9,667 bases of DNA from IMG/VR virus record IMGVR_UViG_2585427756_000015; one strand, written 5' to 3'. This DNA is from a virus (Duplodnaviria; Heunggongvirae; Uroviricota; Caudoviricetes). Below the pieces are notes generated by a model. The model was given only the letters and a program-made list of their open reading frames with translations. It had not been told where the DNA came from and searched no databases. A program made the translations under genes and the position numbers. This document shows, piece by piece, positions 3,042 through 5,870 of this stretch (positions within the stretch are counted from its first letter, which is position 1; each line of letters begins with the position of its first letter).

Positions 3042-4895
3042 TTATGATGATGCCGGTGCATTTATCTCCAGCACCAGACTTTCTATCTCAACGCCATACG
3101 CTGCATTTTTGGTAATATCCGTCAGCGTCAGCGCATTCAGCCCCAGTGTCAGACTGTCTTTTATGACCTGGAATGCCGGGCCAGCCACTCCATTCAGTTT
3201 CGGAGTAACCGTGGCACTGCCGGCGGTGAACACCAGCTCCAGCGTCTGCCAGTCGTTACTGTAATTCCCGAACTCGCCCAACTTTGTGTTTCCTGCTTTC
3301 TTGTGATGCATCAGATTCAGTTTGCCGTCTGTGGTCTGGGTGAAGAACGACATCAGGAACGGGTTACCAGTCCCGGTCATCGCCACGACGTCAGGTAACG
3401 CTACATCGGTATACAGATAAATTCCCAGACCGAACTGATTGTTGGTCAGTGCGCCTGACAGTCGAAACTTACAGCTCAGTCTGCCACCCCGTGTCAGCAG
3501 GGAGACTGCGTCATCCACCGGGCGCGTCAGGGACCAGGCTTTATTGCTCTGCTTGGTGATCTTAAATACACCATCTGACAACTGAATTCCGCCATTCTTA
3601 ATGCTCCAGCCCTGCGCAGCAGCGTCTCCGGCTGTCGGCAACAGGGAGATTGTGCGTATGGATGCATCTTCAGACGGCCCCGATGGCGTGTCGCCGCCGG
3701 GCGAGAGTTTGATTTCCGGTGCCTTACCACTAATGAAGGCTAAGGTGCGACCGGCTACGTTCAGAATAGCAGTTGCCATACGATCGGGAATAATGCCACG
3801 ACGCGCCCATGAGCTGAAATGCGTCGGGCGATTTGATGATACCCAGTTTTTGTTCGTTCGGGATGCCGAACCGTAATAACCAGACCCGACAATATCAGGA
3901 TCTTCTGACGGGTTGTTTGTCGGTGTATTAACTCCGCTACCATCGGTCATAAAGGGAACAAAATAAATCTGCTGGGATTCTTTACCTTTATATGCACCAT
4001 ATACCACTTCATATTGCGTACCGTGTTCTTGTTTCCACGCGTATGTCGTGTCGCCACAAATCCAGGGGACTGATGCCGGACTTCCACCGTGACACTGCGC
4101 TGCCAGCCCGGCAAGGTCAGCACGGAACTGCTGTACCATTGCAAGAAATGCTGCTGGCTGCTGGGCGTAACTGGCATTCGTCATATCGAATTCCCCCTGC
4201 ATCCAGCATATCGCCAGCAAAACGTTTTTCGGGTTTTTCTGCAATGCTGCCTTCGTGCGGAAAAGCAGATCCTGATATAACGGCTTACCCACTCCCCAGC
4301 GAGCCGAATCCTGACTGGCTCCCGTGGACTCGCTGAATGTCCCCTCCGTGCCCTGGGTGAATGCCGAACCACCACGACAGCATGGTACCAGCAGGATCCC
4401 CGCATTATTAGGGATATACGGAAGCAGTTTTTTGGCAATATGTAAGCCCTGTCCGACACAGCCGTACTGCCCTTTGCTCAGGTCAGCCCGGGGATGGTTA
4501 ATCGTACTCATATCCTGAACATCATGCAGACAATGGTCAGCAGGAATGATGTCGTTAAATACGCATACTTCACCACCGGGAGTCACTGTGTTACGACGGG
4601 CCAGTTGCTTAATGCGCGGATGGGGCGCATCGTATGAATCCGGAAGCGGAAGCCCTTCACCGTAAGCCATGGCATTGGATTGCCCGGCCAGTACGATGAC
4701 GTAGTACCACTCCGGCTCAGTTGCACCACTGACGACCACATCACCTTCTGCTGCAATCGCCTGCATCAGGGTATAAGGGGTTATGGCCACCGGACTACCA
4801 AACGGCTGCCAGCCCTCCTTCAGTTTTTGTGTCAGTCGTTTCGCAAGGTCTGACGGCGATGCCGCCCTGACCACGTCATAGTGTTTAAATGCCAT
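3042..4895 (-). CDS. nanS-p: Prophage NanS-p-like sialate 9-O-acetylesterase (N-terminal DUF1737-like domain + SGNH/SASA esterase domain + C-terminal domain)
   Basis: 617 aa. N-terminus MAFKHYDVVRAASPSDLAKRLTQKLKEGWQPFGSPV and esterase block LAGQSNAMAYGEG (GQSN motif) match the family found just upstream of the lysis cassette in EHEC lambdoid and Stx prophages. RBS GGGAGGA before ATG 4895. Confidence 0.8.
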   Translation of the reverse strand: MAFKHYDVVRAASPSDLAKRLTQKLKEGWQPFGSPVAITPYTLMQAIAAEGDVVVSGATEPEWYYVIVLAGQSNAMAYGEGLPLPDSYDAPHPRIKQLARRNTVTPGGEVCVFNDIIPADHCLHDVQDMSTINHPRADLSKGQYGCVGQGLHIAKKLLPYIPNNAGILLVPCCRGGSAFTQGTEGTFSESTGASQDSARWGVGKPLYQDLLFRTKAALQKNPKNVLLAICWMQGEFDMTNASYAQQPAAFLAMVQQFRADLAGLAAQCHGGSPASVPWICGDTTYAWKQEHGTQYEVVYGAYKGKESQQIYFVPFMTDGSGVNTPTNNPSEDPDIVGSGYYGSASRTNKNWVSSNRPTHFSSWARRGIIPDRMATAILNVAGRTLAFISGKAPEIKLSPGGDTPSGPSEDASIRTISLLPTAGDAAAQGWSIKNGGIQLSDGVFKITKQSNKAWSLTRPVDDAVSLLTRGGRLSCKFRLSGALTNNQFGLGIYLYTDVALPDVVAMTGTGNPFLMSFFTQTTDGKLNLMHHKKAGNTKLGEFGNYSNDWQTLELVFTAGSATVTPKLNGVAGPAFQVIKDSLTLGLNALTLTDITKNAAYGVEIESLVLEINAPASS

Positions 4896-5088
4896 GAATC
4901 CTCCCGGGCGGGATAATGTTGTGAGTCAGATAAGGAGCAGGCTGAAGTCCGGAAGTTACAGGACAATGGCAGAAGGGAGACTACAGCCCGCAATTCGAAA
5001 AAGACCGCGCAGTTGCGCAGAGTGATTACTATGGGGTATTATTCGCCAGCTGAAATATTACTTCACGTTTTATTGTTTATTCCTTGCC

Positions 5089-5117
5089 GCCCGCGTCTCC
5101 CAGCGCGGGCTTTTTTT
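5089..5117 (+). terminator. Strong plus-strand rho-independent terminator
   Basis: GCCCGCG-(TCTCCCAG)-CGCGGGC followed by TTTTTTT (5111-5117). The minus-strand side has no U-tract. Confidence 0.5.
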
Positions 5118-5124
5118 GTCCATA

Positions 5125-5357
5125 AGAAAGCCCCTCCGGAGAGGGGCTAAAGCCGCGTATCTGTATCATCATGCACATGGTGCCGGGTGCCTCCCGGTGA
5201 GTTCAGCCCGGTGCCACTAAACCCGCGTCATTCTCGTTTTGATAATCAGAGATTATACCGTCACCAGTCGCCCCTCCGCTCAGGGGGATTCACCATGCGA
5301 AATTTTTTTAACAAATGCCCAGTCTGACAGGCAACTGTCAACTTACTGAATTGTGAG
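5125..5357. repeat. Copy 1 of a ~220-bp structured repeat (candidate ncRNA element)
   Basis: Shares conserved blocks with copy 2: perfect hairpin AGCCCCTCCGGAGAGGGGCT, ATGGTGCCGGGTGCCTCCCGGTGA.TTCAG, GCCCCTCCGC.CAGGGGGATTCACCATGC, TTTTAACAAA, CAAC.GTCAAC, CTGAATTGTGAG. Variable spacers between the blocks. Confidence 0.6.
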
Positions 5358-5392
5358 CAACATAGCATTTAACGGGGAACCTGTTTTCTGCA

Positions 5393-5422
5393 GTAAAAAG
5401 GCCCACCGGAGCGGATGGGCCT
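5393..5422 (-). terminator. Minus-strand intrinsic terminator between the two repeat copies
   Basis: AGGCCCA-(10-nt loop)-TGGGCCT hairpin (5399-5422) followed on the minus strand by UUUUU (plus A-run 5395-5399). Confidence 0.4.
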
Positions 5423-5611
5423 GGAAGGATAGCGGTCATGTGATGCCGGTTTCCCGGTAACTCAGCACCGGTATCTGAGTCAACGTTTTCTCTACTGGGT
5501 CATTTCCGATACGCCCTGCCTGCTGACAGGCTTTCATCACATCTGAAAATATAGCACCCTGACTGATACTGTAGTACCTAAGGTTCCAGAAACTGTGATG
5601 TATCCGGCACA

Positions 5612-5825
5612 GAAAAGCCCCTCCGGAGAGGGGCTGGAGAGTGGCGCTATGTGCCATTGCATGGTGCCGGGTGCCTCCCGGTGAATTCAGTACCAGCACC
5701 TGAATCCGCGATTATCCCATATACCTACTCGCTGATTGCCCCTCCGCACAGGGGGATTCACCATGCCAGTTTCTTTTAACAAACTCCCCGCAAACCAGAC
5801 AACAGTCAACCGCCTGAATTGTGAG
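5612..5825. repeat. Copy 2 of the ~220-bp structured repeat (candidate ncRNA element)
   Basis: Same conserved blocks as copy 1, including the identical 20-nt perfect hairpin at 5616-5635. On the minus strand the hairpin is followed by UUUUCUGUG. Confidence 0.6.
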
Positions 5826-5831
5826 ACATTT

Positions 5832-5855
5832 AAAAAAAAGCCCGCAAAAGCGAGC
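5832..5855 (-). terminator. Minus-strand intrinsic terminator immediately after the tRNA cluster
   Basis: Minus strand reads GCUCGC-UUUU-GCGGGC (one G-U pair) followed by UUUUUUUU (plus A-run 5832-5839). Confidence 0.5.
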
Positions 5856-5870
5856 CAGGGAAAATAAGTG

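Follow-up and report, generated by a model that had tools for sequence, protein, structure and literature searches.

Introduction

In Shiga toxin (Stx) phages the toxin genes belong to the late region, in which the order is Q, the late promoter pR', tRNA genes, stx, the esterase gene nanS-p and the lysis genes S, R and Rz. Small RNAs (sRNAs) are encoded in the same neighbourhood: in eight prophages of strain Sakai, convergent Hfq-bound sRNAs lie between the coding sequence (CDS) of a moron (cargo) gene and the downstream open reading frame (ORF) (Tree et al. 2014, PMC4104026). Here we describe the corresponding part of a 9,667-nt stretch of DNA from a virus of the Caudoviricetes (IMG/VR record IMGVR_UViG_2585427756_000015), referred to as a whole as the window, in which 975 nt (positions 5870-4896) separate the last tRNA gene from the start of an esterase gene. 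We put at roughly 85% the probability that this region is the moron site of the Q-dependent late operon in a common, non-toxigenic lambdoid prophage of Escherichia coli with a mosaic, Stx-phage-like backbone.

The dyads described at moron sites include EcOnc27 with AsxR, after stx2B, and EcOnc06 with AgvB (PMC4104026). EcOnc27, AsxR and AgvB have been detected by Hfq cross-linking and analysis of cDNA (CRAC) and by northern blots (PMC4104026, PMC7873438). EcOnc27 (sRNA103) is located after stx2B (PMC7873438, PMC12370729, PMC12711010), and STnc100 has been placed 75 nt downstream of stx2 (PMC12370729, PMC12711010). Copies of STnc100 are expressed in strain EDL933 according to RNA-seq, and one of them has been confirmed by northern blot (PMC5331693). 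PasD, which adjoins an esterase gene, is related to STnc100 (bioRxiv 10.64898/2026.05.13.724894), and data from the sequencing of interacting RNAs joined by ligation (RIL-seq) exist for PasD and for an sRNA of prophage PP6 (PMC8550237). The domain architecture of NanS-p has been described, and nanS-p is also documented in non-Stx prophages (PMC10462455).

Results

The stx insertion point is empty

We mapped the window by blastn onto the sequence of Stx2a phage EH1910 (LC567834; EH1910 positions follow the numbering of that sequence, L002) and inspected the junction sequences. They define an empty stx insertion point at positions 5829-5832, to which no strand is assigned. The window matches the left flank of the stx2 cassette up to 5833 and its right flank from 5828 onward. 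On the left, window 6457-5833 corresponds to EH1910 3361-3986 with 91% identity, comprising the 3' end of a methylase gene, the tRNA genes and 37 nt of flank. On the right, window 5828-5613 corresponds to EH1910 5322-5561 with 69% identity, and a second segment, window 5356-5122, matches the same STnc100 gene of EH1910 at 87%. In EH1910 the stx2AB cassette (3987 to ~5321) lies between the terminator of tRNA-Arg and the STnc100 unit; in the window, the T-run of the tRNA terminator is followed, after ~7 nt, by the upstream box of a first STnc100 unit (unit 1). Relatives with a stx operon carry it as an insertion that separates the tRNA terminator from the first STnc100 unit; in the window this site is empty.

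The sequences that follow the toxin genes in Stx phages resemble those that fill the slot of the window. In the Stx2 phages EH1910 and 86 and the Stx1 phage YYZ-2008, the distance from stxB to the start of the STnc100 gene is ~50-75 nt. In two of these three Stx phages, 86 and YYZ-2008, a convergent sRNA of the AsxR/AgvB type comes directly after STnc100, and both phages are collinear with the window from 5356 onward; beside the STnc100 gene of EH1910, Rfam found no AsxR/AgvB-type partner. Compared with the three phages, the window has an additional STnc100 unit as well as a middle unit that has diverged. Because STnc100 and a convergent sRNA follow stxB in Stx phages, and because the junction is empty in the window, the RNA genes are a conserved frame and not a replacement of the toxin. 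The initial annotation of the window had proposed that RNA-like elements occupy the toxin position. That regulatory-RNA genes lie in the cargo slot holds true; that they sit in the toxin position does not, since the STnc100 frame follows stxB and the junction is empty.

The empty junction is widespread. Of 5426 complete E. coli genomes, 1014 have it, that of the type strain among them, and 592 have the junction between the tRNA and stx2A; the junction fragment has matches in 2447 genomes. Stx2 and Stx2e cassettes use this same junction, and the stx1 genes of YYZ-2008 lie against the same STnc100 frame. With the sRNA genes as a standing frame, the toxin-free slot is the commoner state (1014 versus 592 genomes) and not the outcome of a swap.

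An exchange of cargo, in which regulatory RNA genes took over from stxAB as the payload of the slot, is the most probable of the alternatives, and we consider it very unlikely. Window 5832-5357 (476 nt, unit 1 and the middle unit) has no collinear counterpart in EH1910 and sits at the place of the 1.3-kb stx2 cassette, so the window does have extra RNA genes beside the insertion point. However, homology to the STnc100 behind stx in EH1910 extends to unit 1 as well (the 69% match above), whose box abuts the tRNA terminator. In the non-toxigenic phage Nil3 this junction is combined with only one STnc100, the position of STnc100 after stxB is common to Stx1 and Stx2 phages (with the convergent sRNA in two of three), and the array of three units is found beside other genes in a further phage.

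No trace of the toxin genes

Stx1A, Stx1B, Stx2A and Stx2B (tblastn) and the whole stx1 and stx2 operons (blastn, word size 7) gave only flank matches and noise against the window. Neither stxA nor stxB, which together define a Stx-converting phage, was found, and no ORF is suitable for either; the initial annotation had likewise seen no AB5-toxin ORF in the slot, and the tblastn comparison that it proposed uncovered no stx remnant in 4896-5870. The 975 nt contain no credible CDS. The longest ORF that touches them (93 aa, TTG start, 5993-5712) enters the tRNA genes, and the longest that lies fully within them (87 aa, GTG start) overlaps the RNA genes.

The best protein match pairs residues 55-103 of Stx2A with plus-strand positions 5142-5291 (26.9 bits, E 0.006), and exceeds all of 100 mononucleotide shuffles (21.7 +/- 1.5 bits). 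As a stx remnant it was ruled out, because its strand is wrong and it falls within a conserved sRNA gene (antisense of unit 2); moreover, the equivalent sRNA in phages with intact stx scores at most 16.9 bits. We judge the similarity to be due to chance, and no specific reason accounts for it.

Descent from an Stx2 phage by precise deletion of stxAB is in our view more improbable still than an exchange of cargo. The tRNA region and its flanks are 91% identical to those of an Stx2a phage, a methylase remnant shows that the window derives from an arrangement of Q, methylase and tRNAs such as EH1910 has, and the two states of the junction alone give no direction of the event. Against a deletion stand the lack of any stx remnant at the protein or DNA level and the fact that the empty junction outnumbers the stx2 junction and occurs in strains other than Stx-producing E. 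coli, the type strain among them. The use of one junction by Stx2 and Stx2e, and of the same frame by stx1, fits repeated insertion into a standing empty site.

STnc100 units 1 and 2

Two structured repeats that had been noticed in the slot are real: both are full-length matches to the Rfam family STnc100 (RF02076), well above its gathering score of 47 bits. Unit 1 (5613-5824, minus strand) scores 136.3 bits at 5795-5605. It has an upstream box TCACAATTCAG (5824-5814), a -35 element TTGTCT (5802-5797), an extended -10 element TGTTAAAAG (5781-5773), a predicted 5' end at 5766 and a terminator at 5634-5613, and is 99.6% identical to Nil3 and ~91% identical to the unit of the non-Stx phage PPyecE. 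Unit 2, the esterase-proximal one (5127-5356, minus strand), scores 165.4 bits at 5327-5118, with the box at 5356-5346, a -35 element TTGCCT (5334-5329), an extended -10 element TGTTAAAAA (5313-5305), a predicted 5' end at 5298 and a terminator at 5147-5127. Judged by its sequence, which is 87% identical to the STnc100 following stx2B in EH1910, unit 2 corresponds to EcOnc27/sRNA103 of Stx2 phages. Over their transcribed parts, units 1 and 2 share 71% identity, and the middle unit shares 58-61% with either.

Both full units share the box TCACAATTCAG, a -35-like TTG(T/C)CT and, 18 nt downstream, an extended -10 TGTTAAAA(G/A). The 5' end of PasD2, mapped in enteropathogenic E. coli (EPEC) by RNA-seq and northern blot, coincides with a conserved GCATGGTG, 7 nt after the extended -10. 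The predicted 5' ends of the three units (5766, ~5543 and 5298) were transferred from this mapped end by alignment. Since the PasD2 end fits TTG(C/T)CT with the extended -10, the first ~30 positions of the Rfam STnc100 model are probably promoter DNA. The hexamers TTGACA/TTGACT (5341-5336 and 5809-5804) were rejected as -35 elements of the sRNAs, because the PasD2 5' end fits TTG(C/T)CT with TGTTAAAA(A/G) instead. A sigma-54 promoter, an idea prompted by chromatin immunoprecipitation of RpoN in Salmonella, was looked for in the units by eye, with no convincing -24/-12 motif.

The structure of the family, with its closing helix, internal hairpins and terminator, is supported by RNAalifold, which gave 32 consensus pairs over ten units (the three of the window, five phage units, PasD2 from EPEC and the phage counterpart of the middle unit); 14 of these pairs show changes on both sides.

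The region around the box of the full units (5804-5824 and 5329-5356, minus strand) reads TCACAATTCAG...TTGAC(A/T)GTTG(C/T)CTG; within it lies an imperfect inverted repeat (for unit 2, TGACAG-N4-CTGTCA). Stx2 phages retain the element, YYZ-2008 (Stx1) has lost part of it, and PPyecE lacks it; it may function as an operator or form an RNA hairpin.

A diverged middle unit completes a three-unit array

Between the two full units lies a diverged STnc100-like unit (5395-5556, minus strand), which scores 30.1 bits (E 0.0012, at 5566-5393), below the gathering threshold of the family. Its extended -10 element is TGCTATATT (5556-5548), its predicted 5' end lies at ~5543 and its terminator at 5421-5395; the z-score of its fold is -2.6. 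In middle units the long closing helix is preserved despite exchanges of GC to AU and AU to GC, with changes on both sides at three pairs. Since the helix is kept in this way, the middle unit is a diverged member of the family, more than debris.

The unit recurs at 86% identity in phage vB_EcoS-640R1, there too between two STnc100 units, and this full-diverged-full array has other neighbours than in the window. Within the complete E. coli set, the middle unit is present in 673 of the 5426 genomes and the complete 975-nt slot in 353; the type strain, ATCC 11775, has an identical array. The segment between closing helix and terminator differs among the three units of the window. As this segment carries the seed in PasD, the differences suggest different sets of targets, and the three units probably have distinct ones. 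We speculate, tentatively and with considerable doubt, that the middle unit stands for an unnamed STnc100/PasD subfamily missed by Rfam, and that the array combines one scaffold with three seeds in a multi-target Hfq regulon. The sole detail of the locus that may be undescribed is this conserved array of three units with a diverged one in the middle.

The convergent sRNA gene

A fourth sRNA gene lies on the plus strand at 5013-5117, as indicated by the terminator scan, its fold and homology to EPEC. It has a -35 element TTGCGC (5013-5018), a -10 element TATTAT (5037-5042), a predicted start at ~5049, an AU-rich body, a seed CCTTGCC (5082-5088) and a terminator at 5089-5117. The gene is arranged tail-to-tail with unit 2: its terminator ends at 5117, and the Rfam match of unit 2 ends at 5118. 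Window 4896-5150 is ~95% identical to the region of prophage PP6 in EPEC E2348/69 that encodes the sRNA E2348C_1409.E2348C_1408.IGR; the CCUUGCC seed and the terminator stem are identical, with one difference in the terminator loop. The EPEC sRNA is associated with Hfq by RIL-seq and is called homologous to EcOnc08/21/42 of enterohaemorrhagic E. coli (EHEC) by its authors (PMC8550237). Its target motif is GGCAAGG, and 767 chimeras were recorded with the 5' untranslated region of cfa (PMC8550237).

In PP6 (positions 578-600 and 2121-2297 of the prophage sequence, L009), the insertion sequence ISEc13 splits the STnc100 gene, leaving its first 23 nt upstream of the element and the rest downstream. 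The convergent sRNA beside this split gene is intact and was detected by RIL-seq.

The plus-strand sRNA shares the position of AsxR and AgvB, convergent with STnc100 and upstream of the esterase gene, and the same convergent layout is found in phages 86, YYZ-2008 and PPyecE. It is not AsxR or AgvB itself: a 301-nt search with the covariance models (RF02703 and RF02702) gave no match at E <= 10, and in the alignment the body and terminator differ, the conserved 3' body (nt 18-60) being unmatched. A relationship to OmrA/B was also ruled out (25 bits against a threshold of 40). This sub-threshold match (5029-5117, plus strand) consists mostly of the terminator and a GGUAUU stretch inside the predicted promoter.

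Genes and terminators around the slot

The late genes of the window all lie on the minus strand, and the window is 99.9% identical to a prophage in the chromosome of E. coli VR50. Downstream of RusA (9303-8944) comes the gene for a 229-aa antiterminator Q (8258-8947; Pfam PF06323, Phage_antiter_Q, E 5.5e-84; Q also in the VR50 annotation). It is followed by genes for a eukaryote-type Ser/Thr kinase (254 aa, 8111-7347; Pfam Pkinase, E 1.5e-33) and a PP2C phosphatase (247 aa, 7350-6607; Pfam PP2C_2, E 3.9e-14), both so named in the VR50 annotation. These two genes overlap by 4 nt and form cargo directly downstream of the predicted pR'/tR', before the tRNA genes; they could be a phage-exclusion or signalling module. 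Where the window has this pair, EH1910 has the 5' part of a DNA methylase gene.

Of the N6/N4 DNA methyltransferase, the C-terminal third alone is left in the window (6170-6496, minus strand; Pfam N6_N4_Mtase, profile positions 134-219 of 221 only). The remnant is a pseudogene without N-terminus in the VR50 annotation and corresponds in the alignment to the 3' end of the methylase gene that EH1910 has intact. It is a recombination scar that ties the backbone to the Q-methylase-tRNA arrangement of Stx2a phages. Three tRNA genes follow on the minus strand, all found by ARAGORN and matching the Rfam tRNA family: one with a CAT anticodon (6120-6045; Met according to ARAGORN, Ile in RefSeq), tRNA-Arg(TCG) (6037-5961) and tRNA-Arg(TCT) (5947-5871). 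Their intrinsic terminator (5832-5856, minus strand) came out of the terminator scan and is kept in EH1910 just upstream of the stx2 promoter region.

Terminators in the slot had been pointed out before, and such sites are enriched: over 2600-8400 there are 18 terminator-like sites, versus 5.6 +/- 2.4 in shuffled sequences. Within the slot, five are on the minus strand and one is on the plus strand. The last of the five is located in the leader of the esterase gene (4998-5020, minus strand; terminator scan) and is kept in phages 86, YYZ-2008 and PPyecE.

The esterase (617 aa, 3042-4895, minus strand) is a NanS-p-type sialate O-acetylesterase with the Pfam domains DUF1737, SASA and DUF6645. Going by sequence, it has the make-up of NanS-p, with a DUF1737 N-domain, a SASA catalytic domain, a C-terminal domain and a gene upstream of the holin. 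Its identity to the esterases of phage 86 (Stx2) and EH1910 is 90% and 60%, respectively. A strong terminator, with a 12-bp stem and a T-run (2931-2959, minus strand), lies between the esterase and holin genes. This gap is just 150 nt long, and the presence of PasA/PasC in it was ruled out, since it shows no homology to the 448-nt PasA-bearing gap of YYZ-2008 and E2348/69. The remaining genes on the minus strand encode a P21-type holin (2891-2676; Pfam Phage_holin_2_1), YdfR/DUF1327 (2671-2327; Pfam DUF1327), lysozyme (1983-1456; Pfam Phage_lysozyme) and Rz (974-528; Pfam Phage_lysis).

The window thus displays the late-region order of Stx phages, Q, a predicted pR', tRNAs, nanS-p, S, R and Rz. 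The initial annotation had recognized the run from the tRNA genes over cargo and a nanS-p-like esterase to S/R/Rz, and Pfam, ARAGORN and the comparison with EH1910 agree with it. It was also right that the esterase and the lysis cassette are retained and that stxAB sit between the tRNAs and the esterase in Stx phages: the comparison with Stx phages that it had suggested found the order tRNAs, stx2AB, sRNA, esterase and lysis genes in EH1910.

Discussion

A model for the late operon

The Q gene of the window is clear; the promoter, a second TATATT and the terminator that would make up a lambdoid Q operon are predictions at the level of consensus sequences. The predicted pR' and tR' (8185-8274, minus strand; consensus scan and sequence) comprise a -35 element TTGCAA (8274-8269), a -10 element TATATT (8251-8246), the second TATATT (8231-8226), possibly a sigma-70 pause element, and a terminator (8211-8185) whose hairpin folds with z = -3.1. 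The predicted pR' overlaps the end of the Q gene, and the second TATATT lies ~8-13 nt into the transcript. The predicted pR'-tR' RNA would be ~55 nt long, in a layout like that of sigma-70-dependent pause sites and of the short, StxS-type pR' RNA.

We propose that in the lysogen RNA polymerase starting from pR' would halt at tR', and that the tRNA genes and the four sRNA genes would be transcribed from their own promoters. The sRNA set would consist of three tandem units of the STnc100 superfamily on the late strand and one convergent gene, each ending at its own intrinsic terminator, and its products may act in trans by Hfq-dependent base-pairing with host and prophage mRNAs. The five late-strand terminators from the tRNAs to the esterase, together with the one before the holin, would keep the esterase and lysis genes silent until polymerase is modified by Q. 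After induction, Q-modified polymerase would pass tR' and the terminators of the tRNAs, the three sRNAs, the leader and the esterase, and the esterase and lysis genes would be expressed.

The least probable of the alternatives holds that the units are cis-acting modules of the late leader, either of the pR'-tR' type, as in the lambda 6S RNA region, or RNAs for processive antitermination: they do sit between Q and the lysis genes, each with a promoter and a terminator and 150-180 nt long, near the size of the lambda pR'-tR' transcript, but a better pR'/tR' candidate lies directly after Q (8274-8185), the units are ~2.4 kb away from Q with other cargo in between (in other phages, stx or different genes) and are distant from it in all relatives, and their relatives are bound by Hfq, form chimeras with many mRNAs and belong to a family with up to 11 copies per genome.

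Several points weigh against our reading of the region as a moron site whose sRNAs act in trans within a Q-dependent operon. The proposed action through Hfq draws on relatives, in which expression and Hfq binding were seen, and the assignment of pR' and the Q-dependent read-through draw on lambdoid precedent. The putative sRNA promoters consist of weak hexamers (4/6 matches, with an extended -10) that were not called by the consensus scan. Published functions of STnc100/EcOnc27 are tentative, the effects on fimZ and espA having come from overexpression. Finally, the middle unit, sub-threshold in Rfam, could be a decaying copy that keeps only its terminator.

The architecture is widespread and has already been described, convergent Hfq-binding sRNAs at the moron site having been known since 2014. 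To call the RNAs of the slot putative, as the initial annotation did, is too cautious in that their relatives are experimentally detected Hfq-bound sRNAs (PMC4104026, PMC8550237). The sRNA genes upstream of nanS-p in Stx-like prophages are best viewed as the standing frame that receives stx, which matters mainly for annotation. The precise empty-site junction could aid the typing of stx gain and loss, and commensal and extraintestinal strains carry the same Hfq-sRNA modules as those studied in EHEC and EPEC.

Comparison with known systems

PasD1 and PasD2 of EPEC E2348/69, homologues of EcOnc13, share with the units of the window the 5' scaffold GCAUGGUGAAUCC, the closing helix, the terminator and the position upstream of an esterase gene, and PasD2 scores 41 bits against STnc100. 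An identification of the units as PasD was rejected, as the seed/probe CCTTGTGAGTTCTGGCTGCGCATG has no match in the window with up to 3 mismatches; unlike in PasD, the linker differs, as does the sequence of the terminator.

The non-toxigenic lambdoid phage Nil3 (AM051322), which comes from E. coli O157:H7 and has annotated tRNAs and tR', carries the junction of the tRNA-Arg terminator and STnc100 without stx; identity over window 5870-5614 is 99.6%, and a convergent sRNA of the type seen in the window comes next. Nil3 differs from the window in its Q (144 aa, with an annotated tR'), in having just one STnc100 unit and in lacking the kinase/phosphatase pair.

Stx2 phages (86, NC_008464; EH1910, LC567834; the 933W type) and the window have the order of STnc100, NanS-p esterase, P21-type holin, lysozyme and Rz in common. 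With EH1910 the window shares tRNA-Ile/Arg/Arg ahead of STnc100 and 91% identity over the tRNA region; with phage 86, which also has a convergent AsxR, it shares 78-93% identity from 5356 onward. Unlike these phages, the window lacks stx2AB and has three STnc100-type units versus one. Its convergent sRNA is not AsxR/AgvB, its Q gene is different, and the kinase/phosphatase pair stands in place of the 5' part of the methylase gene.

The dyads of Tree et al. have the same layout as the slot of the window, a sense sRNA of ~160-200 nt (STnc100/EcOnc27) lying tail-to-tail with a short sRNA on the antisense strand in the interval between cargo and esterase. The window differs from them in that the sense partner is triplicated and the antisense partner matches E2348C_1409.E2348C_1408.IGR rather than AsxR/AgvB.

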